A stretch of 32,000 nucleotides of DNA from Candidatus Jordarchaeales archaeon (GCA_038858525.1 JAWCFL010000002.1:89987-121986); one strand, 5' to 3'; positions 9,512 to 29,044 are shown, counted from the first letter of the stretch. Notes: generated by a model not told the origin, from the sequence alone. Translations and numbers: made by a program.

Positions 9512-9754
9512 TTAAGCTTCTTGGACGCTTACCTTAATCGCTTTGTTAGGACACGCCTCGACGCACCTGTAACATAGTATGCAGAACCTCTTAAAGGATG
9601 GAACTATTACGTAGCTCTCTGGTTCCTTATTGGGCTCTCTGTCCGTCGCATACCTAACAAAAACAGTGCATGGGCAAACTTCCAAACATTTTCCGCAATC
9701 TTGGGGTCTAGAACATTTGTCTCCAACCCATTCTACTGAAACCTTTACCGGCAA
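9512..9754 (-). CDS. Small 2x[4Fe-4S] ferredoxin
   Basis: Atypical C-x5-C-x2-C-x3-CP motif and a canonical CILCYRCVEACP motif. Confidence 0.85.
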   Translation of the reverse strand: MPVKVSVEWVGDKCSRPQDCGKCLEVCPCTVFVRYATDREPNKEPESYVIVPSFKRFCILCYRCVEACPNKAIKVSVQEA

Positions 9755-10594: not shown

Positions 10595-10837
10595 TGTCCC
10601 ACCTTCGCTAAAACCAGCTGTATTATTAGTTTTATTTTTATCTAATGAGAAGAGAGAAGACACCTGAATAAAAGCATTGTTTCGTCTTCCTGCACAAGGC
10701 ATTTTGTGGAAAAAGTATTACACGTACACTTTGGTATAAACACTGACCTATTTTTTGGGAATCAATGCAGGTGTTTCATCGTTGAGAGAACACTTATATA
10801 TTCCTTGAAGTAAATTTAAGACTCGCCTTTTGGTAAT

Positions 10838-13010: not shown

Positions 13011-13173
13011 GCGGGGGTTGCCTAGTGGCTAGTTCCGGAGGAACCCATAAAAGGCGCTGGCCTGGAGTTTAAACCGCACCTGAAAGCCAGTGACCCGAAA
13101 AGGTGCATGACGCCGCGCGCCATCATGCGCTATCGGACGGGTCGCGTGGGTTCAAATCCCACCCCCCGCGCCA
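13011..13173 (+). tRNA. tRNA-Ser(GGA) with three introns: D-loop 13031-13050, canonical 37/38 13068-13084, variable arm 13101-13138
   Basis: Acceptor stem GCGGGGG/CCCCCGC, G73 and encoded CCA. Removing the three segments gives D-arm GCCU-AGUGGCUA-AGGC, anticodon arm CUGGC-CUGGAGA-GCCAG, variable arm GACCC-GAAA-GGGUC and T-arm GUGGG-UUCAAAU-CCCAC. Confidence 0.88.
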
Positions 13174-13281
13174 AACACAACGATTCCCCCCAAACGTTGT
13201 TTTATGTCCTTCCTCCAGGAAATTTAGAGGAAAGAGCCGAGTAAGGCTATGTTTTGTGTGAAAAAATAGCTTGCTTGTTTT

Positions 13282-13713
13282 TTATATGTCAAGGACGAAT
13301 ACTAAGCGAGTTTTATCTTTTTTAATGTCGATTTCCATTTCGTGATACGTTGCTGCTTTGACGTCAGTCTTTGACACGTGCTTCTTGTGATTGAACTTTT
13401 CACCCTTTGCTGTCGCCGTTAACCTGTAACGTCCATCTTTCTCTTTCTCTATTGCCTTAACTTTAACCTCGGAGAATACTAGGCCCTCAGCGTCTGTTAG
13501 GTAAATGAATTCTTCAAGCCAGTTGTAAAGGAGACTCTCTAGGTCTTCTCCTTCAACAGTTATGCTCCTTTCTACTTTAGGTTCGATCCTTGAGGTGTCC
13601 GTCATTAATTCGTAGAGTGCTTTAGCTGCCTCTTCGAAGGCTTCTTCGATGGTTTCCCCTTTTGCTTCTATTTTAGCATCAGCGGTGTGCTCGAGAAACC
13701 TAAAGCTGCCCAT
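13282..13713 (-). CDS. Archease (activator of the RtcB tRNA ligase)
   Basis: FRFLEHTAD, LLYNWLEEFIY, VKAATYH, FVLDI. ATG at 13713. Confidence 0.93.
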   Translation of the reverse strand: MGSFRFLEHTADAKIEAKGETIEEAFEEAAKALYELMTDTSRIEPKVERSITVEGEDLESLLYNWLEEFIYLTDAEGLVFSEVKVKAIEKEKDGRYRLTATAKGEKFNHKKHVSKTDVKAATYHEMEIDIKKDKTRLVFVLDI

Positions 13714-13896
13714 AGTTAACACCTCACTCCAGTTTTTATCATAAGTGAAAGAAAAGCTTTCCTGAGTTTTAGAGAAGCATTTCTTAGAGTTTCGAGGAAG
13801 CCATGTGAAAGATCCGAGGGTGTTCTCTGTAATACTAAGCTTCAAAATGTTGGGGGTGAAGGATGACTCGAGAAAGGTCTGGAGGATGAAGCTTGG

Positions 13897-14385
13897 TTGA
13901 AGTACGTTAAGGTTGTTTTTCTGGGGTTGCCCTCGGTTGGCAAGACGAGTATTATAACGCTCTTGAGCGAGAACAGGGTTGTTAAGAGCTACGACCCGAC
14001 GATAGGTGTTGACTTTGGTTCTTTGTCGATCGGCGAATGTGAGGTCTGCATGTGGGACTTCGCAGGGCAGGATAGATTCAGGTTCCTTTGGGACGACTTC
14101 ATAAAGGGGGCGAAGGTGATCTTCGCTGTGAGCGACTCGACCCCGAAAAACGTTCTGCAGACTAAGAGGATAATAGATGAAGTTAGGCAGAAAACTGATG
14201 CGGTTATCATAGGGATAGCTAACAAGCAGGATCTTCCAGGAGCCATGAAACCCAGTCAGGTGGAAAGCATACTTGAAGTTCCAACATACGGCATGGTTGC
14301 AATAGACCCTAGAAAGAGAGTTAAAATGTACAGCATTTTGAGGCAGGCTCTGGAACAGGTGGTTTTAACGGTAGCGAGCAACTAA
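13897..14385 (+). CDS. Ras-superfamily small GTPase (Rab/Arf-like)
   Basis: G1 GLPSVGKT, G2 PTIGVDF, G3 WDFAGQ, G4 NKQD; 162 aa single domain. Confidence 0.9.
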   Translation: MKYVKVVFLGLPSVGKTSIITLLSENRVVKSYDPTIGVDFGSLSIGECEVCMWDFAGQDRFRFLWDDFIKGAKVIFAVSDSTPKNVLQTKRIIDEVRQKTDAVIIGIANKQDLPGAMKPSQVESILEVPTYGMVAIDPRKRVKMYSILRQALEQVVLTVASN

Positions 14386-14458
14386 CCGGATTTTTTCCTT
14401 AGCGTTTTACAAAAAATTTATGTCTTTCTCCTTCAACCTGAATAAAAGGGGTTTCCGA

Positions 14459-14812
14459 GTGAGTTCATACAGTTTTGGACCGGCAGGAAAGTATTCGCCA
14501 AAACCACATGCTGCCCCTAAGGACATTAAGGAGATATCATTACTAGACCGCACTGTGAGAATTATGGGTGTGGTGGTGGAGTCAACTTCAAGTTATATTG
14601 TCGTTGATGATGGAACAGGGATTATTAAAGTGCTCCTGCCGAGTGAAACTTCTGTTCCTGAAGTTGGGAGGATCGTTAGGGTTTTTGGCTCAGTATCCCA
14701 AAATGGGAAAGGAAGCGTATACATAAATGCGGAGATCATACAGGACATGAGTTCCTTAGATTTGGGGCTTTACAGGAAAGTTAAGAAGATTAAAAAGCAT
14801 GGTTTAACATGA
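14459..14812 (+). CDS. OB-fold protein resembling the archaeal RPA small subunit (RPA14/RPA3-like)
   Basis: I-x-EI...V-x-I-x-G...DDGTG...P-x-VG-x-IVRV-x-G...AEIIQD-x-S-x-LDL pattern, recalled as similar to Thermococcales RPA14. GTG at 14459 is preferred over ATG at 14420, which sits in a TATA-like element. Confidence 0.65.
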   Translation: MSSYSFGPAGKYSPKPHAAPKDIKEISLLDRTVRIMGVVVESTSSYIVVDDGTGIIKVLLPSETSVPEVGRIVRVFGSVSQNGKGSVYINAEIIQDMSSLDLGLYRKVKKIKKHGLT

Positions 14813-14843
14813 AGATTAAGGGTGTTATGAAGGAGGGGAAAAC

Positions 14844-15599
14844 TTGCCGTTTAGAGCGAAGTTTTCAGACGCGAAAACTTGGAAGCGGGTCATCGACGCG
14901 ATAAGCGTACTTGTAGATGAGGCTGTCTTTAAGGCGAGTAAAGATGCCGTGAAAGTTAGAGCGATGGATCCAAGCCATGTCGCTATGGTGGACGTCTATC
15001 TTCCCGTCGGAATATTTGATGAATACGAGTGCAGTGGCGAGGTAGCTATAGGGATGAGCCTTGACGAGATGGGGAAAGTAATGCGTAGAGCAGGTGCAAG
15101 CGACGAATTGGAGCTCGTTCTTGACGAAGCTGCAGGCAGCCTTCGCGTGCATCTTAAGGGGGCCACCACACGAACCTTTAGGCTGTCCCTCCTAGATATA
15201 GGAGGGGAAGAGCCGCCTACGCCATCCATCAAGTTTAACGTTGAAGCGAAAATGCTGTCTGACGCCCTTGTTCAAGCGCTAAAAGACGCTGAGCTGTTCA
15301 GTGATCACGTGCAGATCTCAGCAACTCCTGAGGGGTTGCGTATTGCCGCTTCAGGCGACACGAGCGGAGTAGAAGTCAAGATAGACAAAGGAAGTGAGGC
15401 TCTCTTAGAGCTTAACGCGACGGAAAGTTCAAAGGCAATATATGCGCTAAGCTACCTTTCAGACATGATCAAGGCGGCTTCCGTGAGCGAAACAGTGACC
15501 ATCGCCTTCTCCACGGATATGCCTTTAAAACTTGAGTTTAGGGTTCTCGGAGAGGGAAAAGTAACATACTGGCTTGCTCCTAGGATCGAGGCAGAATAA
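14844..15599 (+). CDS. pcn: DNA sliding clamp PCNA
   Basis: AMDPSHVAMV, C-terminal YWLAPRIE; 251 aa. Confidence 0.97.
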   Translation: MPFRAKFSDAKTWKRVIDAISVLVDEAVFKASKDAVKVRAMDPSHVAMVDVYLPVGIFDEYECSGEVAIGMSLDEMGKVMRRAGASDELELVLDEAAGSLRVHLKGATTRTFRLSLLDIGGEEPPTPSIKFNVEAKMLSDALVQALKDAELFSDHVQISATPEGLRIAASGDTSGVEVKIDKGSEALLELNATESSKAIYALSYLSDMIKAASVSETVTIAFSTDMPLKLEFRVLGEGKVTYWLAPRIEAE

Positions 15600-15647
15600 G
15601 AGGGGACTTTAAAACATCAACCTCTCCTTTAAATTTATTAGAAGCTA

Positions 15648-16700
15648 TTGAAGAGGAGAGGGTGCAAAATAATTTCTCGCCATTTTATTGCGAAGTATCC
15701 TTTCACGCTTGAGGCTCAGACATGGCTTAAGGAGAGAAAAATAGACTTAGACGACTTAGTTAGGGAAGAATACCGTATTGTTCTAGAGAGGGGAAAGGAG
15801 AGGGTTTTAAGTGCCCTTGAGGAAGGGGTTGTTTCTCTTGGCCTAGACGACCCTGAAGCCGAGTTTCTCTCTTTCCCCGTGGCTAGATTGATTGTCGAGG
15901 TTGTTGGAGACCCTTTCTTACGGCACAGGTTCGCGGTGGCTGAGGCGAAGAGGGCTCAAGGCTTATTTAGAAACGAGGATGATGACACGCTGATCGCCAT
16001 AGCGACGCAAACCTTCGGTATTAATTGCAAGTTTGCTAGGAAGGATATTGGCGGAAGAAGGTACCCATTCAAGATCCACTTTGCAGATTACTTGAGGTAC
16101 GCATCCGGCTTTCATGACCCATACTGGAAGCTCGTTAACAGAGTCCTTTCGGGGGGATACGTCTTTCTCGTAAAGGAGGATTTTACGAGAATACTGGCTA
16201 GCGCTGTCGAGAAAAAGCTCTCAGAGCCACGAGAGCCACCCGTAAAGGTGCCTTCCGAGGTAAAGCAGATTGTAAGTGAGATTGCAATTAGAGTTATAGA
16301 TAAACGCGAGAAATACGCTTTCGAGAAGGTGGAGGGGGAGATTGTGGAGGAAGCGTTTCCCCCATGCATAGCAGCGCTTGTATCGGCGCTGCGGAGAAGC
16401 CAGTCTCTCTCTCACAATGCAAGGTTTACTTTGACCTCGTTTCTCCTCAACGTAGGCTACCCTGTCGAGAAGGTTATTTCGCTTTTCAGTGAGGTGCCTG
16501 ACTTCAAGGAGGACTTGACAAGGTACCAGGTTGAACACATTGCAGGCATGAAGAGTGGAACAAGGTATACGCCTCCAAAGTGTGAAACCATGAGGACATA
16601 TGGTTTGTGCCTGTCGCGTGAAGAATGCGGAAACGTGAAACACCCTCTCGAGTATTACAGAAAGCATAGACGACGCCACATGAAGGAGGCGGAAAGTTGA
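15648..16700 (+). CDS. priL: DNA primase large subunit PriL
   Basis: KYPF, WKLVNR-x-L-x-GGYV, FPPCI, HNARFTL, YTPPKC-x-TM-x4-LC Fe-S domain. The start codon is uncertain. Confidence 0.93.
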   Translation: MKRRGCKIISRHFIAKYPFTLEAQTWLKERKIDLDDLVREEYRIVLERGKERVLSALEEGVVSLGLDDPEAEFLSFPVARLIVEVVGDPFLRHRFAVAEAKRAQGLFRNEDDDTLIAIATQTFGINCKFARKDIGGRRYPFKIHFADYLRYASGFHDPYWKLVNRVLSGGYVFLVKEDFTRILASAVEKKLSEPREPPVKVPSEVKQIVSEIAIRVIDKREKYAFEKVEGEIVEEAFPPCIAALVSALRRSQSLSHNARFTLTSFLLNVGYPVEKVISLFSEVPDFKEDLTRYQVEHIAGMKSGTRYTPPKCETMRTYGLCLSREECGNVKHPLEYYRKHRRRHMKEAES

Positions 16701-17947
16701 GTCTAAATGACAGACAGACGAAAAACGAAGTTTTCCTTAAAAACCTCTTCAGAAAGTATTATCAGGAGAATAAGGTGGAGCCTCCCTCTTCAATGGAAAA
16801 GAGGGAGTTTGGTTTCATGTTCTTCGGTGCGCAAACCATGGTGAGGCACCTCGCATTCTCGGAGCCTGAAAGTCTTCAACGATTTCTGGTATCTAGAGCA
16901 CCCTCTAACGCTTTTCACTCCGCGGCATATTACGCAAAGCCAGATGCTACAAGAATGGATGAGAAGGTATGGGAAGGGTGCGATCTCGTATTCGACATTG
17001 ACGCAGACCACCTTAAAACCTCCTGTAAGGAGGTACATGATAAATGGATTTGCCAGCACTGCGGGCAAAGCGGTCCAGGAAAGAAGCCCGAGAAGTGCCC
17101 GGTATGCGGGGAGCAAAACATAGAAGAAAAAACATGGCTATGCGAAGAATGTCTGGAGACGGCTAAAGACGAGCTGACTAAGCTAATTGAGGATTACCTG
17201 ACGGCTGATTTTGGCATTAGCACAGATGAATTAAAAGTGGTTTTCTCGGGGCATAGAGGGTACCATGTCCACGTGACCTCAGAAGCACTGCTAGACTTGG
17301 ATCAGAACGCAAGACGCGAAATAGTGGATTACATAAAGGGCGTGGGTCTCGAGCCGCGTTATCATGGACTTGTTGAGGCACGTGATGGAAGAAGTAAGAT
17401 ACTAAGGGGACCAAGGGCCAATGAAGATGGGTGGAGGGGGAGGCTGACTAGGGGTGTAGTCAAAACCATATTATCTATGGATGAAAGCAGCATTCCTCAG
17501 GAAAGAAAAGTGAAGAATGCTTTACGAGTTTTACTGAAAGATAAGGATAAGGTGGCTGATTCGTTGAGGGAGGGAGTGTGGGACACTGTAAGGGGGGTTG
17601 GAATTGATGTTTGGGGGTATATAGCGAGGCTTGCTGTTGAGAAAGTTGGAGGGAGAATCGACGAGCCGGTAACGGCGGACATTAGGAGGTTAATAAGGCT
17701 CCCCACATCCCTGCACGGGAAAACCGGCTTTAAAGTTTGCCCCGTCCCACTAAGAGAGCTCTCATCCTTTGATCCCTTCAAACACGCGTTAGCATTCAGG
17801 GGAGAAGCGACCATCCACGTAGACGAAGCCCCAAAGTTCAGAGTTGGGGAGGAGGAGTTTGGCCCATTTAAAGATGAGGACGTGGAGCTCCCTCTTTCAG
17901 CAGCTGTTTTACTAATATGTAAAGGATTTGCGTACCTGAGGGGATGA
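16697..17947 (+). CDS. priS: DNA primase small (catalytic) subunit PriS
   Basis: REFGF, DLVFDIDAD, FSGHRGYHVHV, IDEPVTADIRRLIRLPTSLHGKTG. Confidence 0.96.
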   Translation: MSLNDRQTKNEVFLKNLFRKYYQENKVEPPSSMEKREFGFMFFGAQTMVRHLAFSEPESLQRFLVSRAPSNAFHSAAYYAKPDATRMDEKVWEGCDLVFDIDADHLKTSCKEVHDKWICQHCGQSGPGKKPEKCPVCGEQNIEEKTWLCEECLETAKDELTKLIEDYLTADFGISTDELKVVFSGHRGYHVHVTSEALLDLDQNARREIVDYIKGVGLEPRYHGLVEARDGRSKILRGPRANEDGWRGRLTRGVVKTILSMDESSIPQERKVKNALRVLLKDKDKVADSLREGVWDTVRGVGIDVWGYIARLAVEKVGGRIDEPVTADIRRLIRLPTSLHGKTGFKVCPVPLRELSSFDPFKHALAFRGEATIHVDEAPKFRVGEEEFGPFKDEDVELPLSAAVLLICKGFAYLRG

Positions 17948-17960
17948 ATGGGGGTTAAGA

Positions 17961-18461
17961 ATGTATAAGGAGATCCGCAAAGTGTGGTTCGCAGAACAAA
18001 AGGAAGAAGCTCTTCAGCCGCTGGGTGACGACTTCTTTGAGAGAGCAACAAGATACCTCAGACAATTAGAGAGCGCGGAGGAGAAAGCGCCTGAACTGAT
18101 TAGGGTAGAAAGGAGGCGAGTGAATTACATGTTAACGGACTTAACAGAGTTACGACTGGAAAAAATAATATTAAAAACCATGGCTAATGCCCCTCTCGAT
18201 GAGGGAGCACTATCTCAAGAGGAAAAAAGCGTCTATGATGCTCTCAAAAAGTTATTGACGATGAAAGAGAATAGACTGGAAGAAATAGAAGAAGGCGACT
18301 TTCTAGTTGTACGTGTACTCATAGACCTGCCAGAAATAGTCGGGGTAGACCTGCAAACTTACGGCCCATTTAAGGCGGAAGACGTAGCTACGCTCCCCAG
18401 GGAAAACGCTGTCGCTCTTATAAAGAGAGGGGTTGCCGCACCAATAATAACCGGCAAATAA
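17961..18461 (+). CDS. GINS complex subunit (Gins15/Gins51-like)
   Basis: Helical A-domain (LQPL...RLEKII) followed by B-domain VRVLIDLPEIVGVDLQTYGPFKAEDVATLP. Position after priS matches the known conserved context. Confidence 0.88.
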   Translation: MYKEIRKVWFAEQKEEALQPLGDDFFERATRYLRQLESAEEKAPELIRVERRRVNYMLTDLTELRLEKIILKTMANAPLDEGALSQEEKSVYDALKKLLTMKENRLEEIEEGDFLVVRVLIDLPEIVGVDLQTYGPFKAEDVATLPRENAVALIKRGVAAPIITGK

Positions 18462-18521
18462 AAGAACACTAATACGTAAAAAATGATATCCAGTGGCATG
18501 TTTCAGATGGCGGTTAAGCGT

Positions 18522-18540
18522 CGCAAAAAGTTTTTAAATA
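18522..18540 (+). promoter_or_regulatory. BRE/TATA promoter of the L11-L1-L10-P1 operon
   Basis: CGCAAAAAG followed by TTTTTAAATA in the intergenic region upstream of rpl11. Confidence 0.6.
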
Positions 18541-18626
18541 TTTAGACTCTTGTCCTTTCTCAATCACACGTGAACATATCCTCTTTTCGCTAATCTCTCG
18601 TAGAGTTCATTAAAAGGTGAACGAGT

Positions 18627-19112
18627 TTGGGCAAAGTTACTGTTGAAGCCCTTGTTGAGGGAGGAAAGGCGACAGCTGGTCCCCCAATAGGCCCAGCTTT
18701 GGGACCTACAGGAGTTAACCTTTACCAGGTAGTTCAGAAAATAAACGAGTTAACGGCTAAGTTTAAGGGCCTTAAAGTTCCAGTAAAAATAACAGTTAAT
18801 ACTGATGATAAGTCCTTCGAAGTAGAAGTAGGTGTTCCACCCACATCTGCTCTTATTCTGAGCAAGCTAGGTAAGGAGAAAGCTACAGGAAACCCTGGAA
18901 AAGAAGTTACGGGTGACATTTCAATGAAGGACATAATCGAAATAGCAAAAATGAAGCGTACCCAACTGTCAGCAAAGACTTTAGCTGGAGCTGTAAGAAC
19001 AGTCCTTGGGACATGTACTTCTATGGGAATTACAGTGGAGGGTAAGGATCCACGTGACGTTCAAAAGGAGGTGCTAGAAGGCAAATATGACGACATCATA
19101 TCCGAAAAGTGA
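18627..19112 (+). CDS. rpl11: 50S ribosomal protein uL11
   Basis: GGKATAGPPIGPALGP, VGVPPTSALI, GTCTSMGITV. Confidence 0.98.
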   Translation: MGKVTVEALVEGGKATAGPPIGPALGPTGVNLYQVVQKINELTAKFKGLKVPVKITVNTDDKSFEVEVGVPPTSALILSKLGKEKATGNPGKEVTGDISMKDIIEIAKMKRTQLSAKTLAGAVRTVLGTCTSMGITVEGKDPRDVQKEVLEGKYDDIISEK

Positions 19113-19152
19113 CCTTTCCTTCAAGTCAAATATCGAAAGTTGAGGGATTTCC

Positions 19153-19815
19153 ATGCCTGTTGATAAAAAGGAGTTAATTAAAGTATTAAAGAAGATCGAT
19201 GAGTCTTCTAAGAAGAGGAATTTTACGGAATCAGTGGAAATAGCGGTTAACCTTAAGGATATCGATCTTAAAAAACCCGAAAACCGCATAAACACAGAAC
19301 TGGTTCTCCCAAACGATATCGAAAAAGAACCAAGGGTCTGCATTATCGCTTCGGGGGAGGTAGCCGTAAAGGCCAAGGAGCTTAACGCAAACGTCTTGGA
19401 CAAGGATGAGCTTCAAAGCTTAGCAGGCAATAAGAAGGCTATGAGGAAGCTCGCCAAATCATTTGATTTTTTCGTCGCCTCAGTTGACCTTATGCCTCTT
19501 GTAGGGCGAATCCTCGGCGCCGTCTTAGGTCCTAGGGGAAAGATGCCCAAGCCTATACCTCCAAATGCGGATCTAAGGTCAATAATTGAGAATTACAAAA
19601 AGACTATTAGGTTGAGGATGAGAGATAACCCTTGTCTTCACGCTAAGGTCGGTATTAGAGGCATGGATGAGGAGAAGCTAGCTGAAAACATAAACGCGGT
19701 AATATCATTTCTCGAGGAGAAGCTTGAGCGGGGGCCTAATAATATCAAGTCCATTTACGTGAAGACAACGATGGGGTCACCTGTCAAGGTGCCATATGTG
19801 AGGGGCAAGAGGTGA
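19153..19815 (+). CDS. rpl1: 50S ribosomal protein uL1
   Basis: KKRNFTESVEI, LGPRGKMPKP, KTTMG. Confidence 0.98.
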   Translation: MPVDKKELIKVLKKIDESSKKRNFTESVEIAVNLKDIDLKKPENRINTELVLPNDIEKEPRVCIIASGEVAVKAKELNANVLDKDELQSLAGNKKAMRKLAKSFDFFVASVDLMPLVGRILGAVLGPRGKMPKPIPPNADLRSIIENYKKTIRLRMRDNPCLHAKVGIRGMDEEKLAENINAVISFLEEKLERGPNNIKSIYVKTTMGSPVKVPYVRGKR

Positions 19816-19821
19816 AGGAAA

Positions 19822-20838
19822 GTGCAGGTTGAGCTGACCGCCAGAGGAAGACGTGTTCCAGAGCATAAGGTAAGAAGAGCAGAGGAGATTCGGCGCCTCA
19901 TGGAGTCCTATGACGTGATAGGCGTCGCCAAGATAGAGGGTATAGGAGCAAAGCAACTCCAAGAGTTAAGAAACAAGTTGAGGGGACAGGCCTTAATAAA
20001 AGTGGAGAAGAACACGTTGGTGAAGAAGGCAATAGAGAAACTTGCCGGTAGCAAGAAGGGGATAAATCAGCTTGAAGAGCACATTAAAGGCCCCGTAATC
20101 CTCATTTTAACTAACATGAATCCCTTCAAGCTCAACTTGATACTTGAAAAAAGTAAAACAAGAGCGCCAGTAAAGCCCGAGACAGTTACTCCTGTTGACA
20201 TAGTTGTTCCAGCTGGAAATACAGGTCTCCCTCCGGGACCAGTAATAAGTGAGCTCGGAAGCGTAGGACTGCCTACGAGAGTAGAGTCAGGCACGATATG
20301 GATTACCAAGGACACGCTTCTCGCGAAGGCGGGGGATGTTGTCTCAAAACCTGTTGCAGACGTGCTGAGAAGGCTGGGAATAGAGCCGCTGGAGGTCGGA
20401 TTATCCCTGCTCGCAGCTTACGACGGTGGAATAGTGATCTCAGAGAAGAACTTAAAGATTAATGTTCAAGAAACCTTCGAGGAATTTAAGAGAGCGCACA
20501 TGGAGGCGTTCAACCTCGCCGTATCAGCTCAGATAACTGTTCCAGAAGCCATGCCATTCATCCTTCAAAAAGCGCACATGGAGGCGTTCAACCTCGCTAT
20601 AAACGCCGCTGTGCCTGCCAATGAAGTATTGCCGCACATTTTAAGGCTCGCCGAGAGCAGAGCGATAAGCTTAGCCGCAGTCATAGCAAGTAAGAGACCT
20701 GACGCTATACCAGAGGGAGTCCTCAAAACGCAGGCTGTGGCTCAGCAAGCTCCTCCTGAAAAGAAAGAGGAAAAAGCTGAAGAAAAAGAGGAGGAAGCAG
20801 AAGAGGAGATCGGAGGTTTAGGAAGCCTGTTTGGTTAA
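19822..20838 (+). CDS. rpl10: Acidic ribosomal protein P0 (uL10)
   Basis: QLQELRNKLR, KNTL, NPFKL, GNTGLPPGP, acidic tail ending GLGSLFG. Confidence 0.97.
   Translation: MQVELTARGRRVPEHKVRRAEEIRRLMESYDVIGVAKIEGIGAKQLQELRNKLRGQALIKVEKNTLVKKAIEKLAGSKKGINQLEEHIKGPVILILTNMNPFKLNLILEKSKTRAPVKPETVTPVDIVVPAGNTGLPPGPVISELGSVGLPTRVESGTIWITKDTLLAKAGDVVSKPVADVLRRLGIEPLEVGLSLLAAYDGGIVISEKNLKINVQETFEEFKRAHMEAFNLAVSAQITVPEAMPFILQKAHMEAFNLAINAAVPANEVLPHILRLAESRAISLAAVIASKRPDAIPEGVLKTQAVAQQAPPEKKEEKAEEKEEEAEEEIGGLGSLFG
20493..20597 (+). repeat. Exact 27-nt direct repeat (AGCGCACATGGAGGCGTTCAACCTCGC at 20493-20519 and 20571-20597) in the P0 stalk-binding helices
   Basis: Two identical copies 78 nt (26 codons) apart, each encoding AHMEAFNLA. 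Confidence 0.95.
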
Positions 20839-20896
20839 AATGTGAAACCTTTAAAAGTAGTTCTAAAGATTATGACTGATAAAGAGGTGAAACAAT

Positions 20897-21205
20897 ATGG
20901 AGTATGTATACGCTGCAATGCTCCTCCACCGTGCTGGAAAAAACATAAATGAGGAAAGCTTAAAGAAAGTCCTTTCCGCAGCAGGTATCTCGCCTGATGA
21001 GGTAAGAGTCAAGGCGCTGGTCGCCGCCTTAGAGGAAGTAAACATAGATGAAGCCATTAAGAGTGCTGCACCTATCCCCATGGCAGCACCAGTGGTAGCG
21101 TCACAAGTTGAGGCGGCAGCAGGAAAGGAAGAGAAGAAAGAGGAGAAGAAGGAAGAGAAGAAAGAGGAGGAAGCGTTGGAGGGGCTAGGTGCCCTCTTCG
21201 GCTAA
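20897..21205 (+). CDS. rpl12p: Ribosomal stalk protein P1 (archaeal L12p)
   Basis: [20 protein letters not shown], acidic hinge, GLGALFG. Confidence 0.98.
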
Positions 21206-21238
21206 AAATGTAAACTCGCCCTTCCAACTCTTCTCTCT

Positions 21239-23977
21239 TTATCCTTTCAGGGCTCTAAGAAGCAGTTCACGCGCTTTTTCTGTCGCCTCATCTATTTTCT
21301 CCACGAGATCCCCTCCACCCATAGCGATTTTTCCTTTTCCGCCGCCAGCACCACCCACTACACCCGCCACGTCTCTAACTATTGTAGAAAGGTCAACGTC
21401 CACAGCTTCCCCCTTCATCCCGACAACTTCCACCTTCCCGCTCTTCCCTAGAAGTATAACCGCTGCTTTCGCCTCTCTTCTAACTATTGAATCAGCTATC
21501 TTGATGAGCGTTTCTTTGTCAGTGTCAACCCGTCCCACGACGACAATATGCCCGTTAATAGTTATGCCCTTTTCAAGGAAACGTTCAGCCTCTCTCTCAG
21601 CCAAGTAATCCTTGAGTTTTTCGATCTCTTTTCCTCGCTCCTTCCACTCCTCGAAAAACCTTTCAGCTGCCTCTAAGACGCTTTCTCTTGGAACCTTAAA
21701 AACCGATGCAACGTCGCTCAAAACTCTATCCATGTCCTGTATGTGGCGAAGCGCGGCTTCGCCTGCCTTGAACTCCAGCCTTACAACTCCATCCTGTATC
21801 CTCTCAACTCTCACTATTTTAATGGGGCCTACTTCACCAGTATGGTCAACGTGTATACCTCCACACGCCTCTACGTCCCATCCCTCAATATCGATTATTC
21901 TAAGTTCGCCTCCAGGAACCGCTCCTCCTTGGTATATCGTAAATCCGAATTTAGCTTCAGCTTCATCTCTGGGCATAACGTACTTGTTCACTCGGCGGTT
22001 TTCCATCACGACCTTGTTTGCCAGTTCTTCTATCTTCACGATTTCGTCTCTGCTCAGGGGCTTATAGTGAGTTATGTCCAACCGTGCTTCGTCAGCCCTT
22101 TTCTCCGCTCCCGCCTGCCACACGTGTGGACCAAGCACTCTTCTAGCGGCGCCATTGAGTATGTGGGTTGCAGTGTGATGCCTCATAAGGGCAAGCCGCC
22201 TCTCCCAGTTCAGCTGCCCTTTGACTTCCTGCCCCAAACGAAACGCAGCAGGGTTACTTACTTGGTGGAGAATGGTGTTTCCAGCCTTCTCGACTTTAAC
22301 TACCATTTCCCCGTTGAGGCTACCAACATCGTAGAGTTGCCCTCCTCCAGTAGGATAAAACAATGTTCTGTCTAGAACCAAGTAAGGACCAGTTATAGCC
22401 ACAATTTTCCCAGTGAACTCTGAATCGTATGGCTTATCGTAGTATAGAGGGTAAGTTGGCGGAAAGTCTCCTTCAACTACACTCAAAGTTGTAGCGCTTT
22501 TTTCTCGCACTTCTTGCCTTCCACCAAGCTCCAGGTAGAAGCTGTTGGGAACGTCAACTTTGACCCCCATTTCTTCCCCTATTTCCTGAACCATTTCAGG
22601 AGTAATTCCGTTAGACTCGTAGAGTTTAACCAATGTTTCGAGGTCTAATGGCTCTCTCCTCTTCAAGAGGCGTTCAACTTGCTTGCGTCCTCTGTCTATC
22701 GTCTGCACATACCTCTCCTTTTCAACCATAAATATGTCATCTATGATTTCGGTTGCAACTTCTAAGTGAGGGTAGCTTCTCTTGAAGTAATCTATTTGCT
22801 TGTGGAAGAGTTCTATGAAGTCGATTTCGAAGCCGTGCAACTTATCTAGGCTCACCGCTCTCCTGAGAATCACGCGTAGGTTGTAGCCACCTCCAACGTT
22901 TGACGGTATACCGCCATCTGCCACCGCAAAGACCAAGGTGCGTGTGTGGTCAGCTATAGCGTAGAGCGCTTCGAGAGGGACAAGCTGCTTTCTAAGCTCC
23001 TCGACGTCAACGTTTAGCTTAGAAGCAGCTTCACGAGTAACCTTCTCAAAGTCCTGCATTTCACTTGCGTCGAAAACCCCGGCAAACGCAAAATACTTAA
23101 CGAGTAACTTCTCGTCAACGCTTACCCCAGTTTCCTTTTTCAGCCAATCGAGAACAGGGCCGAAGGCCGCTTCGTAGACAGTCGGTGTTCCCTGAGTAAA
23201 CCAGCCGATTCTCTCCACTCCCCAGCCTACATCTATCACTTTTATTTTGAGCTCCCTCCACCCTCCATCAGGGTTAAAAGCGTACTGCATGAACACGTTA
23301 TTCACTATTTCAAGCCCCTTCCCGAATGCCTCAAGCGAGGGGCCGAAAGTTCCACCACCACTCCAAACATCCTCCTTGTAAGTGACCTCATCCTTTCCAA
23401 GCCCAAGGATCTTAGTTAAAAACTCGAAGTTAAGCTCTATGCACCTATCCATCCAGTAACCTTCTTTATCGTACTTGAAGGCGTGCTGTCCTCCCATAAT
23501 GAAGAGGGAAAGGTGCCTCCCCGTCCTGCCGACGTTATCCACGTCGCAAAATCCCTTCCCTCCGAACCTTATGCACGGCTGCGGGACAACTAGGGGGTTT
23601 GCGGGGGGCTTAACGACGCCTTCAACTACGTAGGGCTGGAAGTCGGCTATCGAAGCTATAGTGAAAGCAATGTCATCCCTCCACCTAGCAACAACGGGAT
23701 ATGCTCTTATTCTCTTATGTCCTCTCTCCTCGAAAAACCTGCACCAGTTCTCTATGGCTTCATGGAAATCCCATCCCTCATCAACTCTTCTTCCCAGGAA
23801 AAGGTATCCTCCAACGCACTTCGTGTCGCCGCAGTCCCTCCGGTCAGGGTTTAACGTCCAGAAGTAGTCGCCGCACACCTCACACTTCTTCCTGACGAAT
23901 CCTTCCTGCCTGAAAAGCTCAACCTCGTACTTGTCCTTGCCAAAGCTTCTTTTAAGCTCTTCCTTCGAGACGGCCAA
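21239..23977 (-). CDS. alaS: Alanyl-tRNA synthetase (archaeal type)
   Basis: TIASIADFQP, QPCIRF, VGRTGRH, editing motifs RHHTATH and ACGGIH, C-terminal GGAGGG. Confidence 0.98.
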   Translation of the reverse strand: MAVSKEELKRSFGKDKYEVELFRQEGFVRKKCEVCGDYFWTLNPDRRDCGDTKCVGGYLFLGRRVDEGWDFHEAIENWCRFFEERGHKRIRAYPVVARWRDDIAFTIASIADFQPYVVEGVVKPPANPLVVPQPCIRFGGKGFCDVDNVGRTGRHLSLFIMGGQHAFKYDKEGYWMDRCIELNFEFLTKILGLGKDEVTYKEDVWSGGGTFGPSLEAFGKGLEIVNNVFMQYAFNPDGGWRELKIKVIDVGWGVERIGWFTQGTPTVYEAAFGPVLDWLKKETGVSVDEKLLVKYFAFAGVFDASEMQDFEKVTREAASKLNVDVEELRKQLVPLEALYAIADHTRTLVFAVADGGIPSNVGGGYNLRVILRRAVSLDKLHGFEIDFIELFHKQIDYFKRSYPHLEVATEIIDDIFMVEKERYVQTIDRGRKQVERLLKRREPLDLETLVKLYESNGITPEMVQEIGEEMGVKVDVPNSFYLELGGRQEVREKSATTLSVVEGDFPPTYPLYYDKPYDSEFTGKIVAITGPYLVLDRTLFYPTGGGQLYDVGSLNGEMVVKVEKAGNTILHQVSNPAAFRLGQEVKGQLNWERRLALMRHHTATHILNGAARRVLGPHVWQAGAEKRADEARLDITHYKPLSRDEIVKIEELANKVVMENRRVNKYVMPRDEAEAKFGFTIYQGGAVPGGELRIIDIEGWDVEACGGIHVDHTGEVGPIKIVRVERIQDGVVRLEFKAGEAALRHIQDMDRVLSDVASVFKVPRESVLEAAERFFEEWKERGKEIEKLKDYLAEREAERFLEKGITINGHIVVVGRVDTDKETLIKIADSIVRREAKAAVILLGKSGKVEVVGMKGEAVDVDLSTIVRDVAGVVGGAGGGKGKIAMGGGDLVEKIDEATEKARELLLRALKG

Positions 23978-24100
23978 AGGGAAAGCACGCCCCGTTCATT
24001 TTTACCGCTGATAAATCTAAAACAAAAAAATCTAAAAACCTTCCCTACAGATAAAGGAACACGCTAGACTGCTAAAAGAACCCAAAATAAGAAAAACGTC

Positions 24101-24793
24101 TTGAAGTTGAACGAAATGCCCGAACTGTTTGGGTTGAACAGGGAGAAGCTAGAAAAAGCAGCTGAGGAGTTCAGGTATCTCCTCGAAAGAGGATACAACC
24201 GTGAAGGCGCCTTAAACTTCGTCGTAAGCCACCACCGTCTCGACAAGACGCACAAATTAATACTTCTAAGAGGAGTATTTAGTAGTGAAGAGGTGGAGGA
24301 AAGGAGGAGAAAGACGGTATCCTTTAAGGAGCTCGGAGGAAGAGTTCTCGCACTGGATGGATATAACGTGCTGATAGTACTCGAAACAATGCTCAGAAAC
24401 CAGCTTCTCATAGAGGGAGACGACGAATACATAAGAGACGTATCAGGGATGCATGGAAAGCATAGGGTGACTTCCCTCACTACGACGGCCCTAAGCGTCC
24501 TTTTTGATGAGCTGAGAAAGGTTCAACCAAAAGAGGTCCTAGTATTCTTCGATAGGCCGGTGAGTAAAAGCGGAGAGCTGGCCGGAATAACGAGGCAGAT
24601 CATGAAAACTCACGGAGTTATGGGGGACAGTTTGACCGCAAGCCAAACCGATAATGCAGTGATAAGCACCGGAGAAATAGCGCTCACAAGCGACAGCGTA
24701 ATTCTGCAAAAAGCCAAAAAATGCTTCGACATAGCAGGACACATAGTTAAAGAAAAAGAATACGGAAAAATACTAAAGCTAAAGGCCACTTAG
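24101..24793 (+). CDS. DUF434-like protein with a PIN/NYN-type nuclease-like domain
   Basis: YLLERGY...ALNFV-x2-H-x2-L N-terminus, LALDGYNVLI, D-x2-IRD, FFDRPVSKSGELA, TSDSVIL. Confidence 0.72.
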   Translation: MKLNEMPELFGLNREKLEKAAEEFRYLLERGYNREGALNFVVSHHRLDKTHKLILLRGVFSSEEVEERRRKTVSFKELGGRVLALDGYNVLIVLETMLRNQLLIEGDDEYIRDVSGMHGKHRVTSLTTTALSVLFDELRKVQPKEVLVFFDRPVSKSGELAGITRQIMKTHGVMGDSLTASQTDNAVISTGEIALTSDSVILQKAKKCFDIAGHIVKEKEYGKILKLKAT

Positions 24794-24903
24794 CGTTGGA
24801 CAGCAAGAAGAAGGCGACTTAACAATTCACCGAAAACGTGGAAACACGTTTAAGGAAAAACGCAGCTACATGAGACGAGCACTAAAAATTAAAAAACATA
24901 ACA

Positions 24904-24912
24904 CATATAAAA
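24904..24912 (+). promoter_or_regulatory. TATA box of tRNA-Arg
   Basis: CATATAAAA about 30 nt upstream of the tRNA 5' end, in A-rich context. Confidence 0.55.
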
Positions 24913-24940
24913 CTCACAGAGAAATACCGTCTTGAATGGT

Positions 24941-25074
24941 GGTCCCGTCGCCTAGCCAGGAGAGAAAAACTGAGAGGGCGCCGACCAGTAGGCGTAAGCC
25001 TTCTAAGCCGGAGTTCCCGGGTTCAAGTGTTCCCGCCATCAGGGCCGGAACTGAAAATCCCGGCGGGACCGCCA
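24941..25074 (+). tRNA. tRNA-Arg(UCU) with three introns: D-loop ~24963-24974, anticodon stem 29/30 24984-24997, T-loop 59/60 25028-25057
   Basis: Acceptor stem GGUCCCG/CGGGACC, G73 and CCA. The spliced form has anticodon arm CCGGC-CUUCUAA-GCCGG and T-arm CCGGG-UUCAAGU-CCCGG. BHB motifs can be drawn for introns 2 and 3. Confidence 0.9.
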
Positions 25075-25094
25075 CAACTTCCTTTTAATAGCCA

Positions 25095-26060
25095 TTAAGA
25101 TGTAAAGTGCTCGTAGCCCTTCCAGCTGATTTTGACCCAGCCTTCCTCGGGATGCTTAAACTTTACTTCGTTTTCTTGGATTACTCGTCCTATCCTGTGC
25201 AGAGAGCCGCCTACTTTTTCCACGGCTTTCACGGCGTCTTCCCACTTTGCTTCTGGTATCGTGGCGACCAGCTCATACTCCTCACCGCCGTAGAGCGCAA
25301 GTTCATAGGGGTCCAGCCCGTTTCTCTGGGCGAAAACTAAGACTTCAGGTGGAATAGGAACGTTGTCTATGGCGAAGCCAACCTTGCTGGCTTTGGCTAG
25401 CTCATGAAGGGAGGCTGCCAGCCCATCGCTACTATCAATGCACGATGACGCGTAACCTCCTTTAGCTAGGGTTACACCCTCCCTTATCCTCGGCTCAGGT
25501 TGATACACTGTTTTTAAGCAACGGTCCTTTTCGCTCCCCGATTCCAGTCCCTCCAAGAGTATTTTCAGCCCGGCTGCGGTTAACCCGAATGGCCCAGTTA
25601 CCGCGACGACTTCACCCGGCTTAGCCCCCCCTCTCGGCACAAACTTCTCAGTCACACCTAACACTGCGCCGGAGACAACGACCTCATCAGATTCATTAAC
25701 GTCTCCTCCAAGGTAGCGTGCTCCGTAGAAATTCGAGGCTTCCTTTATTCCGCTTGCGATTTCAAGAGCATCGTTCACTTTAAACCACTTTGGAAGACCA
25801 AAAGCGTAAAGCCCTCCGATCGGCTCAGCCCCCTTAGCGGCTAGGTCACTTAGATTCATCACCACAACCTTCCATCCTACCTGCTTCCAAGTCATCCCTG
25901 GTGGGACATCTGTTCTTGCAACAAGCATGTCCGAGCTAAAAACCAGCGTGATACCGCCAATCTGGATTGCCGCCGCGTCTTCACTTGAAGAGTACCAGTC
26001 ATCTACGAAGCCCAAAAGACGCTCAACGAGCTTCCTCTCGCCTAAACCACTCAAATCCAT
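25095..26060 (-). CDS. thiL: Thiamine-monophosphate kinase
   Basis: LGE-x2-L, EDAAAI, SDMLV, NLSDLAAKGA, GGDVN, IDSSDGL, GGEEYELV. Confidence 0.95.
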   Translation of the reverse strand: MDLSGLGERKLVERLLGFVDDWYSSSEDAAAIQIGGITLVFSSDMLVARTDVPPGMTWKQVGWKVVVMNLSDLAAKGAEPIGGLYAFGLPKWFKVNDALEIASGIKEASNFYGARYLGGDVNESDEVVVSGAVLGVTEKFVPRGGAKPGEVVAVTGPFGLTAAGLKILLEGLESGSEKDRCLKTVYQPEPRIREGVTLAKGGYASSCIDSSDGLAASLHELAKASKVGFAIDNVPIPPEVLVFAQRNGLDPYELALYGGEEYELVATIPEAKWEDAVKAVEKVGGSLHRIGRVIQENEVKFKHPEEGWVKISWKGYEHFTS

Positions 26061-26136
26061 TATAACGTACACCCCACCTAAAAAAGACGGAGAAAAAAAT
26101 AAAGGTCACGAAAAAAGAGAAGCTAAAATGGAAAAT

Positions 26137-26580
26137 TTAGTAGCTTGGCTGTTCAACTCTCCAGACGCCATCCTCATCAAGTCTGACGAAGCACGGTACG
26201 GGCATTCCTCTCTCGCTACCATCTGGGTTCAACCTCTTGAAAAAGAACTTTCTCGCATTGGGGTAAGGCAGCTTCTCCTCCTTGAGGTATTCATAACGAA
26301 TCCCTAGTTGATCGACATACTTTCTTCCAGTCGACCACCAGAAGCTGGGACTACTACCACTCCTGTCAGCCACACTCTGAAGCCACTTTAGTAACGTGCC
26401 ACGCCAACCCTCATAATCACCCTTTTCTAAAAGCTCGTAGTGCAGTATTGCGATCTTTTTCGCCTCATCAGAGAGGCTTGCACCAATTTTTCCAGCTACG
26501 TCACTAGCAGTGTCCTTAATTGTTTCTTTAACTTTCTTTTCAAGTTTATCCTTAATACTTTTGATCCTTCCACTCTCCAA
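26137..26580 (-). CDS. Hypothetical protein
   Basis: Long open frame filling the gap between thiL and tRNA-Thr, with a plausible globular composition. TTG at 26580 is the likely start. No family recognised. Confidence 0.6.
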   Translation of the reverse strand: MESGRIKSIKDKLEKKVKETIKDTASDVAGKIGASLSDEAKKIAILHYELLEKGDYEGWRGTLLKWLQSVADRSGSSPSFWWSTGRKYVDQLGIRYEYLKEEKLPYPNARKFFFKRLNPDGSERGMPVPCFVRLDEDGVWRVEQPSY

Positions 26581-26718
26581 TTTTTTAAGAAAAAAAAGGG
26601 AAAAAAACAATACTTAAGTTTTCTGACAATTTTACACCTGAAAACGAGAAAAACGAGAAACCCGTCAAGCTTCACCTAAAAAGCCGTTAAGCTTTCGGCG
26701 AAAAGCCCTTTCATGCAG

Positions 26719-26838
26719 TGGAGCCCCGGGCGGGTGTTCCGCTGAAGACTCGAACCCGCGGCCTGCGGCTTACGAGGCCGCCGCTCTACCGGTTACCCGC
26801 CACTCCAGAAGAAAGAGGAAGCCCTGAGCTACCGGGGC
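26719..26838 (-). tRNA. tRNA-Thr(CGU) with two introns: D-arm 15/16 26823-26793, T-loop 59/60 26748-26736
   Basis: Reverse complement gives acceptor GCCCCGG/CCGGGGC, U73 and CCA, and anticodon arm GCGGC-CUCGUAA-GCCGC. Removing the introns gives D-arm GCUC-AGCCGGUA-GAGC and T-arm GCGGG-UUCGAGA-CCCGC. Confidence 0.9.
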
Positions 26839-27119: not shown

Positions 27120-28481
27120 ATGGTTTTGGAGGCGTTAGGTGAGGGGTTAAGGAACGCTATTAGTAAGCTTCTCCGCTCAACTGTTGCTGATAGGGAGACT
27201 GTTAGGGAGCTTGTAAGGGAGATTCAGCGCGTTTTGCTCTCTTCCGACGTTAATGTCGAGCTTGTGCTTCGTCTTTCAGAGAACATTGAGAGGAGGGCGT
27301 TTGAGGAGGAACTCCCCCCGGGCGTCAGTAGAAGGGAGCACATTGTCAAGATCGTTTACGAGGAGCTCGCGGAAATCCTTGGCAGCAAGCCGCGCGGCCT
27401 AAACATTAAGCCGGGACAATTAAACGTCATAATGCTCGTCGGGATACAAGGTTCAGGAAAAACGACTACCGCAGCCAAGCTGGCTAGATACCTAGCTAAG
27501 CGCGGATTTAAGACGGGGCTTGTGTGCGCCGACACTTTCCGTCTAGGAGCATATGAGCAGCTCAGCCAGCTAGCTGACGCTGCAGGAATCCCGTTCTACG
27601 GCGACATTAAAAGCAAGAGTAGCGTCGATGTGGCTAAGAAGGGGATCGAGTATTTCCGGGGAAAGGGGTACGATGTGGTCATAGTTGACACTGCGGGCAG
27701 ACATAAAAACGAGGCTGACCTAATGGAGGAAATGAAGGATATTGCCAGAGCGATCAAGCCCACCGAGATAATGCTCGTCGTTGACGGGACATTAGGGCAG
27801 CAAGCCATGGCTCAGGCCAGAGCCTTCAAGGAAGCCACAGATGTAGGTTCGATAATCGTGACTAAGCTTGACGGGACTGCTAGGGGTGGAGGAGCTCTCT
27901 CAGCTGTAGCCGCAACAAGCGCGCCTATAAAGTTCATAGGAGTGGGGGAAAAGCTAGACGACATAGAGGCATTCGACCCCGTCGGCTTCGTAGGCCGCCT
28001 CCTAGGAATGGGGGATTTACGGGCGCTTCTCGAGAAGGTGAGGGAAGCCGAGATCAAGCCTGAGAGGGAGGAAGCGTTAAGCCTGCTCACAGGGCGCTTC
28101 ACGCTAAAGGATTTTTACAAGTGGATGGAGCAGGCTAGAAAAATGGGGCCAGTAGGTAAGCTCTTCGAGCTGATGGGGCTATCCAGTGTTCCGAAGGAAC
28201 TTAGAGACGTCGCCGAGGCCAAGCTTGACAAGTGGAAGGTCATAATGCAGTCCATGACTATGGAGGAGCTGGAAGACCCCAAGATACTCAACAGGTCAAG
28301 AGTCAACAGAATAGCCAGAGGGTCCGGCACCACACCAAAGGAAGTAAAAGAGCTGGTAGACCAGTACTTCGCAGCCAAGAAAATGGTTAAAGCGCTAGGT
28401 AAAAGGAGGATGCGAGGAAAGGGGATGCCCATACGCGGCGTAACACCTGAACAACTGGAGAAGCTAGTGAGGAAGCTATGA
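27120..28481 (+). CDS. srp54: Signal recognition particle protein SRP54
   Basis: GIQGSGKTT, DTAGR, TKLDG-x-ARGGG, M-domain SRVNRIARGSG. Confidence 0.98.
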   Translation: MVLEALGEGLRNAISKLLRSTVADRETVRELVREIQRVLLSSDVNVELVLRLSENIERRAFEEELPPGVSRREHIVKIVYEELAEILGSKPRGLNIKPGQLNVIMLVGIQGSGKTTTAAKLARYLAKRGFKTGLVCADTFRLGAYEQLSQLADAAGIPFYGDIKSKSSVDVAKKGIEYFRGKGYDVVIVDTAGRHKNEADLMEEMKDIARAIKPTEIMLVVDGTLGQQAMAQARAFKEATDVGSIIVTKLDGTARGGGALSAVAATSAPIKFIGVGEKLDDIEAFDPVGFVGRLLGMGDLRALLEKVREAEIKPEREEALSLLTGRFTLKDFYKWMEQARKMGPVGKLFELMGLSSVPKELRDVAEAKLDKWKVIMQSMTMEELEDPKILNRSRVNRIARGSGTTPKEVKELVDQYFAAKKMVKALGKRRMRGKGMPIRGVTPEQLEKLVRKL

Positions 28482-29044
28482 GACACTTCTACATCATACT
28501 GAACAGCATCCCTAAGTTCTCAAGGAAAAACGTCGACTGCGGAGATGTAAGCGACGACGTGGCTGAGCTCTGCTCCTGTATCAGAGCAGCCCTCTTCCTC
28601 TCCCACGACATAAGAAGAGACGTTAAAGTCCACCTAGTCCTCCTTGAAGAAAAAAGAGAAGTTGTAATCGATGGTGGAAGCATCAGGTATCTTTCCCCCG
28701 ACGAAAGATCCATCTGTATGCTCCTGATCAAACTGAGCGAGAAGAGAGCCAGAAAACCCTGGAGAGGAGTTTACGTTAACGATCTCACATCTATCAGGGA
28801 CGTTTTCTCACCGGACGCCTTAATCATCACGCCCAGTAAAAGCGGAGCCGACCTGCGGCAAGTGAAAAACTTAAAGGAGGTAGCAGTAATTATTCCATTG
28901 ACTCCCTCAGACAATTGGATAGAACACCTAAATAATGCAAGAACACTGCACGTCAGAACATGGGGAAAGCTGCTTCCAAGCCACCTCATAACCATCCTGA
29001 ACAACCAAATGGACTTAGCGGAGGAACAAAAATGTACCCCCTAA
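28478..29044 (+). CDS. trmY: TrmY-like SPOUT protein (tRNA pseudouridine-54 N1-methyltransferase homolog), degenerate
   Basis: C-x-C-x3-ALFLSHDIRRDV, LSPDERS, H-x-ITIL-x-N-x2-D; lies directly upstream of pus10. Confidence 0.72.
   Translation: MRHFYIILNSIPKFSRKNVDCGDVSDDVAELCSCIRAALFLSHDIRRDVKVHLVLLEEKREVVIDGGSIRYLSPDERSICMLLIKLSEKRARKPWRGVYVNDLTSIRDVFSPDALIITPSKSGADLRQVKNLKEVAVIIPLTPSDNWIEHLNNARTLHVRTWGKLLPSHLITILNNQMDLAEEQKCTP

Follow-up and report, generated by a model that had tools for sequence, protein, structure and literature searches.

Multi-intron tRNA genes and their candidate splicing machinery in a hot-spring Jordarchaeia archaeon

Three tRNA genes, for Ser(GGA), Arg(TCT) and Thr(CGT), lie in a 32-kb stretch of DNA from a Candidatus Jordarchaeales archaeon (GCA_038858525.1), and each is interrupted by short inserts, eight in all, whose removal restores a canonical tRNA. 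The stretch, hereafter the window, is C2:89987-121986 of a metagenome-assembled genome (MAG) of 2.09 Mb, which consists of 63 contigs and is 92.7% complete. Numerous metagenomes from hot springs contain this DNA, and the metatranscriptome run X14 covers part of the region (27% of sampled words). The inserts are jointly best explained as endonuclease-type introns processed by the splicing endonuclease EndA and by RtcB, a reading to which we assign a probability of roughly 90%.

Under this reading, each of the three loci would be a functional tRNA gene, present as a single copy in this hot-spring Jordarchaeia archaeon and transcribed as a precursor bearing two or three short introns. An (alpha-beta)2 heterotetramer of EndA would recognise bulge-helix-bulge (BHB) motifs, or relaxed forms of them, at each insert, with the L1/Crenarchaea-specific loop (CSL) of the alpha subunit permitting relaxed substrates, and would cut both bulges; RtcB, activated by archease, would then ligate the exon ends. 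The pattern is not specific to the window; Jordiarchaeia tRNA genes show it throughout the genome and the lineage, in agreement with published work. Excision itself, the enzyme responsible for it and the order of removal are what we infer from these sequences.

Three interrupted tRNA genes

No intact tRNA was found in the window by ARAGORN in default or -i mode or by Rfam at the gathering threshold, and lowering the Rfam threshold to E<=10 yielded a single 18-nucleotide (nt) T-arm fragment at 13145-13162. Three loci could nevertheless be read in intergenic stretches from GC-rich 7-bp acceptor pairs, T-arms and an encoded CCA, and their outer ends coincide with positions 13011 and 26838. Deletions were enumerated with a BHB scorer (h, a 4-bp H, a 3-nt bulge cut past the second base, and h', on both strands), and the products were then checked by ARAGORN. 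Excision of three, three and two inserts gave clean cloverleaves for tRNA-Ser(GGA), tRNA-Arg(TCT) and tRNA-Thr(CGT), respectively (Table 1).

The number and places of the inserts do not depend on the BHB rule. A motif-free parser, which takes stems and conserved bases alone as its input, agreed with the BHB-based reconstruction for all three genes. A parser restricted to BHB-qualified jumps had also been tried and was dropped in favor of the motif-free one, as it overlooked many real loci as well as the D-loop insert of tRNA-Arg. The scan for acceptor stems and T-arms found no further tRNA in the window.

One insert occupies the canonical position 37/38 and seven are non-canonical. Central pairing is complete (4/4) in six of the eight inserts and reaches 3/4 in the remaining two, namely the Arg D-loop insert and the Ser insert at 37/38. 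Six inserts likewise have a flanking helix of 3 bp or more, and five combine both features. The Arg D-loop insert satisfies the relaxed bulge-helix-loop form only. In the variable arm of tRNA-Ser, the insert carries a 9-bp inner helix that is offset by one A.A mismatch, and its removal leaves the arm ACCC-GAAA-GGGU.

A first-pass annotation of this DNA, made from the sequence alone, had proposed eight introns in three tRNA genes, seven of them non-canonical, placed at 15/16, in two D-loops, at 29/30, at 37/38, in the variable arm and twice at 59/60. Count and positions all match the reconstruction (ARAGORN scores of the spliced products, 119-125), and the relaxed BHB motifs that it ascribed to several introns are borne out by the geometry of the individual inserts.

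Table 1. Coordinates of the tRNA genes, their inserts and the archease gene in the window. BHB geometry is given as central pairs (maximum 4) / bp of the outer helix / bp of the inner helix.
Feature	Position	Strand	Length (nt)	BHB	Remarks
tRNA-Ser(GGA) gene, encoded CCA	13011..13173	+	163		88 nt spliced; ARAGORN 121.7; orthologues in G001-G004, exons near-invariant
Ser intron 1	13031..13050	+	20	4/0/5	D-loop, 3' side; central GUGG/CCAU; relaxed, no outer helix
Ser intron 2	13068..13084	+	17	3/7/1	canonical 37/38; U.U mismatch in the central helix; anticodon stem serves as outer helix
Ser intron 3	13101..13138	+	38	4/1/0	long variable-arm loop; central CCGA/UCGG
archease	13282..13713	-			PF01951 E 1.1e-48, residues 48-187 of a long open reading frame; likely start Met at 13713, frame open to 13845
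tRNA-Arg(TCT) gene, encoded CCA	24941..25074	+	134		78 nt spliced; ARAGORN 119.3; orthologues present
Arg insert 1	about 24963..24974	+	~12 (12-15 by placement)	3/1/0	D-loop; CAGG/ACUG; bulge-helix-loop-like
Arg intron 2	24984..24997	+	14	4/4/1	anticodon stem, 29/30
Arg intron 3	25028..25057	+	30	4/5/5	T-loop, 59/60; strict hBHBh'
tRNA-Thr(CGT) gene, encoded CCA	26719..26838	-	120		76 nt spliced; ARAGORN 125.2; orthologues present
Thr intron 1	26793..26823	-	31	4/0/3	D-loop, 15/16; central GCUC/GGGU; no outer helix
Thr intron 2	26736..26748	-	13	4/5/1	T-loop, 59/60; UUCG/CGGA; T-stem serves as outer helix; loop on the inner side

Related genomes and the genome-wide tRNA set

The three genes of the window genome (G000) were compared with their orthologues in G001-G003, which belong to the same genus, and in G004, from a sister genus; tRNA-Arg alone was also followed into five genomes of a second family of the order (G005-G009). 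Across G000-G004, alignments and parses of each orthologue show exons that are near-invariant and inserts that vary in both length and sequence. The comparison with compact relatives follows the same logic as the published census.

In tRNA-Ser, the D-loop intron measures 17-27 nt and is variable in sequence among the orthologues, with CCCAU/CCCGC retained, and the 37/38 intron is present in 5/5 orthologues at 13-17 nt. The inner hairpin of the variable-arm intron covaries across G001-G003. This intron was not found in the G004 orthologue, the compact variable arm of which (UU-CCCC-GUUU-GGGG-AGC) has the layout 2+4+4+4+3, as does the spliced arm proposed for the window gene.

In tRNA-Arg, the 29/30 intron ranges from 14 to 28 nt among orthologues, the copy in G004 being 28 nt and thus of double length, and its central pairs remain 4/4 throughout. 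In the 59/60 intron, the inner helix reads GUUCC/GGAAC in the window, GCUUCC/GGGAGC in G001 and ACCACCAC/GUGGUGGU in G004, the changes in both orthologues being fully compensated. The tRNA-Arg genes of the second family have the D-loop and 29/30 inserts together with an anticodon-loop intron and are without the T-loop intron.

The Thr 59/60 intron is found in 5/5 orthologues (12-14 nt), and the 15/16 intron is carried by G001-G003 (26-33 nt). The latter was not found in G004, where the D-loop is compact; conversely, a 12-nt intron at 37/38 occurs in G004 and not in the genus of the window. The G004 loci compared here are L100, L112 and L088, and presence or absence of introns varies between genera of one family. 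Judged from these alignments, the inserts behave as introns under structural splicing constraint.

The loci might instead be decayed tRNA pseudogenes or assembly artefacts, with the working tRNAs encoded elsewhere, as they are invisible to standard tRNA finders and come from an incomplete, fragmented MAG. This is highly improbable. The exons are fully compatible with a cloverleaf, and the loci stand in conserved synteny across five genomes of two genera. The acceptor/T-arm scan of the genome, which recovers an incomplete gene set, contained no compact copies with the anticodons Ser(GGA), Arg(TCT) or Thr(CGT). At least 13 independent hot-spring runs, drawn from several studies, contain the same DNA. 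An intron-rich phenotype, moreover, is found lineage-wide, as described below.

Interrupted tRNA genes are the rule in this genome. Standard calls over the whole genome are few, with five from the Rfam model (E<=0.001), five from plain ARAGORN and ten from ARAGORN when one intron in the anticodon region is allowed. Genes were therefore sought by a perfect acceptor stem and a T-arm starting with TTC or GTC, followed by the motif-free parse, the scores of which show a clear break with noise below it. This gave 28 loci with a parse score of at least 57, and ARAGORN calls a tRNA (score of at least 108) in every spliced product. Twenty-seven of these 28 genes are interrupted and 21 have at least two inserts, amounting to 64 inserts and a mean of 2.29 per gene, counts which are approximate and probably lower bounds per gene. 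The sole uninterrupted gene is a class II Leu(GAG) on contig C5, and a tRNA-Phe with four inserts was seen in an earlier parse. Anticodon calls are doubtful for C1:109836-110027, C11:10765-10948 and C32:134-328.

A canonical BHB (4/4 central pairs and a flanking helix) was found within +/-2 nt of 33 of the 64 inserts, as opposed to 28 of 202 control boundaries that had been shifted by 9 or 12 nt. Among 31 related genomes, Rfam tRNA matches at E<=1e-5 number 4-11 in 11/11 genomes of the order to which the window belongs and mostly 22-40 in other Asgard families, among which there are a few low outliers. Encoded 3' CCA ends occur in 17/28 of the reconstructed genes, the three of the window among them.

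Several observations weigh against the reading of all inserts as EndA introns. The search recovers 28-29 of about 46 expected tRNA genes, and class II tRNAs are partly mis-assigned, the Leu(GAG) gene on C5, for example, having been put in class I. The Ser variable-arm intron has a second possible placement (13095-13133, 39 nt, BHB 4/2/2) that makes its junction ambiguous. The D-loop insert of tRNA-Arg, in addition to its incomplete central pairing, lacks flanking helices, and its boundary is ambiguous by a few nt.

It is chiefly this Arg insert, and possibly other D-loop inserts without an outer helix, which might not be an EndA intron and might be retained or be removed by another route. D-arm inserts also have the weakest motifs genome-wide, and a 2026 preprint places just 33% of the D-arm inserts missed by tRNAscan-SE at canonical BHB boundaries (10.64898/2026.10.13.758758). 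We consider this quite unlikely nonetheless. The Arg insert is at an identical site in 10/10 orthologues from both families, where its middle varies and CUGA(A/G)A is conserved at the 3' side, and its central helix reaches 4/4 (CAGG/CCUG) in the second family. A retained D-loop of 22 nt would break the tertiary contact between G18-G19 and the T-loop. EndA enzymes with the L1 loop are known to cut relaxed bulge-helix-loop substrates (PMC5829648).

It is doubtful, although conceivable, that short D-loop inserts with a weak or absent BHB constitute a distinct substrate class. They could be minimal bulge-helix-loop substrates that are cut after the other introns, in an ordered splicing, or they could be handled outside the standard BHB rule. 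The example for such a class is again the 12-15-nt insert of tRNA-Arg(TCT), found at the same spot in Jordiarchaeaceae and Freyrarchaeaceae.

Splicing enzymes and published systems

The enzymes that EndA-type splicing would need are encoded in the genome. Exactly two EndA genes (PF01974) are present, with open reading frames (ORFs) of 191 and 198 amino acids (aa) on different contigs, and the PF01974 profile search of the genome found no alpha'2 or epsilon2 fusion. The 191-aa protein (contig C3, region 81835-82089) has its best match in the catalytic alpha subunit of Aeropyrum pernix (3P1Z_B, E 1.6e-48), and its closest structures also include the alpha subunit of P. aerophilum. Aligned to the A. 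pernix alpha subunit, it retains Y129, H137 and K168; the catalytic histidine is marked by the A. pernix His-to-Ala mutant entry 3AJV. Its N-terminal loop, YGQPLGIRKPKTPQFNKPLELS, aligns with that of A. pernix without gaps and places K46 opposite APE K44. A role of this loop residue K44 in A. pernix was reportedly treated by Hirata et al. in 2011.

The 198-aa protein (contig C43) is closest to the enzymes of M. kandleri and M. jannaschii. It has Ala144 at the position of the M. jannaschii catalytic His125, retains Tyr134 and Lys175, and is without the loop insert. A catalytic alpha subunit with the loop lysine, together with a beta subunit without the catalytic histidine, points to an (alpha-beta)2 architecture with the L1/CSL loop, that is, to the broad-specificity type. 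Approximately 28 residues at the N-terminus of the beta ORF (L082:1189-1785, + strand) are highly acidic and Glu-rich (MEEEREEQEEFFKEEEGFKEEEGEVEV) and have no match in solved EndA structures; they may reflect a mis-called start or a lineage-specific tail.

RtcB is encoded by a single copy (PF01139, E 5e-181, C1:35280-36587). The archease gene lies in the window on the strand opposite to tRNA-Ser, with which it is convergent, and ends 109 nt from the CCA, close to the 110 nt estimated in the first-pass annotation. All three same-genus genomes (G001-G003) keep the order eIF2B-like gene, tRNA-Ser, archease and Arf-like GTPase; in the sister-genus genome G004, no archease gene turned up within 1.5 kb of tRNA-Ser. 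No linkage of archease to rtcB or to its substrates was found to be conserved beyond close kin. The adjacency of archease and tRNA-Ser is best read as local synteny and not as a functional unit, and it has no evident functional weight because it is conserved in the genus only and RtcB is on another contig.

The SRP54 gene of the window (27120-28481) shares 91% identity with that of Candidatus Jordarchaeum sp. LHC_1308 and 88% with that of a Jordarchaeia MAG, and the next relatives share at most 60%. By this one marker and the kinship grouping of the genomes, the genome is placed among Asgard archaea, in the Jordarchaeia/Freyarchaeia branch. These two names denote one group according to Valentin-Alvarado et al. 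(2024, PMC11291895), and in complete genomes of Atabeyarchaeia and Freyarchaeia 92-95% of tRNA genes have introns, often at non-canonical positions, with more than half of the genes having several (PMC11291895).

Goswami et al., in a 2026 preprint focused on the families Freyrarchaeaceae, Jordiarchaeaceae and Atabeyarchaeaceae, counted 2.2 intervening sequences per gene (10.64898/2026.10.13.758758). Jordiarchaeaceae, with 2.01, and Freyrarchaeaceae, with 2.42, are the top two of 21 Asgard families; 97% of genes have at least one insert, 71% have at least two, and the maximum is five per gene. D-arm inserts were mostly missed by tRNAscan-SE, and the BHB signal was strongest in the T-arm. The authors inferred repeated intron gains, saw two EndA paralogues in most genomes and found no evidence of intron transposition between Asgard tRNA genes (10.64898/2026.10.13.758758). 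An Asgard (alpha-beta)2 EndA with the L1 insert, and the conservation of L1, had been described earlier (Kaneta et al. 2018, PMC5829648).

Our results differ in no substantial way from these published Jordiarchaeia data. The intron burden is alike (about 2.3 per gene here, 2.01-2.42 in the published families), as is the share of interrupted genes (96% here, 92-97% in published Freyarchaeia, Jordarchaeia and Atabeyarchaeia). Both data sets have the same spectrum of positions, with strict BHB motifs in the T-loop, weak or hidden inserts in the D-arm, and further inserts in the variable arm and the stem of the anticodon arm. Both also feature two EndA paralogues, and in both, intron presence or absence varies among close relatives, which is consistent with repeated gains. 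The adjacency of archease is a genus-level detail outside those papers.

Thermoproteales likewise place introns at non-canonical positions and have relaxed BHB motifs, and their (alpha-beta)2 EndA also bears the Crenarchaea-specific (L1) loop (Sugahara et al. 2008). They belong to another phylum, however, and their burden is lower than that found here, with 1.54 introns per gene in Pyrobaculum calidifontis (cited in the preprint). Many weak-motif mini-inserts in the D-loop also set the present genome apart from Thermoproteales, as does the lack of evidence for transposition in Asgard archaea according to the preprint. The epsilon2 EndA of ARMAN-2/Micrarchaeota (PMC3239211, PMC3488258) is another broad-specificity enzyme that handles non-canonical introns. 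It is a three-unit fusion with an ARMAN-specific L2, whereas two separate proteins of about 190 aa with L1 are encoded here.

Published work thus already covers the phenomenon, its distribution among lineages, the EndA architecture and the link to BHB motifs, and the window is a confirmation and not a discovery. The first-pass annotation was right in its Asgard affiliation, in the intron-saturated tRNA set that it supposed, and in expecting a broad-specificity endonuclease, which was classified as (alpha-beta)2 rather than epsilon2; rtcB and archease are both present, on different contigs. Its view that the system falls outside the lineages where multi-intron tRNAs are well described did not hold, because such tRNAs are already on record for the lineage of this genome (PMC11291895; 10.64898/2026.10.13.758758; PMC5829648). 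For the mechanism, a broad-specificity EndA followed by RtcB with archease, the support comes from gene content and sequence.

Among Asgard archaea, the closest prokaryotic kin of eukaryotes, the Jordarchaeia/Freyarchaeia branch has tRNA genes that are fragmented to an extreme degree, and the window remains a clean and well-resolved example of this. It illustrates why standard finders return almost nothing in these genomes, with 4-11 Rfam matches per genome and 0/3 of the window genes, and it has value for annotation since the three genes, along with most tRNA genes of the MAG, would be absent from automated annotation. It also yields comparisons of orthologues that document intron presence and absence as well as compensatory changes.

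Other features of the window

Pfam coverage of all long ORFs, which is not an exhaustive check, gave no evident split gene that would point to tRNA-type introns in the protein genes of the window.

At 21150-21250, weak microRNA-like Rfam matches on both strands were rejected as spurious. They stem from the gene for the ribosomal P-stalk protein (L12), whose purine-rich 3' part, coding for a Glu/Lys tail, can pair with a CT-rich stretch downstream. Over the 160 nt from 21120 to 21280, this pairing of the L12 3' end reaches -50 kcal/mol and looks like low-complexity sequence and not like structured RNA.

Two 4Fe-4S dicluster ORFs of 315 aa and 80 aa (9512-10702, - strand) lie in the same frame, with one TGA (9755-9757; ...KEEW-TGA-LPVK...) between them. 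They could be two coupled genes, or the TGA could be a read-through or selenocysteine site. Stop-codon recoding has been reported for Jordarchaeia.

The Arf-like GTPase next to archease, a small Arf/Rab/Ras-like protein (PF00025, E 1e-21), is encoded at the start of a run of replication genes that all lie on the + strand (13897-18461). The run comprises an OB-fold RPA-like protein, PCNA, the large and small primase subunits and GINS51. The GTPase is syntenic in the three genomes of the same genus, with 91% identity.

A SPOUT RNA methyltransferase gene (PF04013) adjoins and overlaps Pus10 at 28478-30387 (+ strand). We take PF04013 to be the TrmY family, which forms m1-pseudouridine-54; Pus10 makes pseudouridine 54/55. 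The two proteins would likely be a functional pair acting on the T-loop, the loop that also holds the 59/60 introns.

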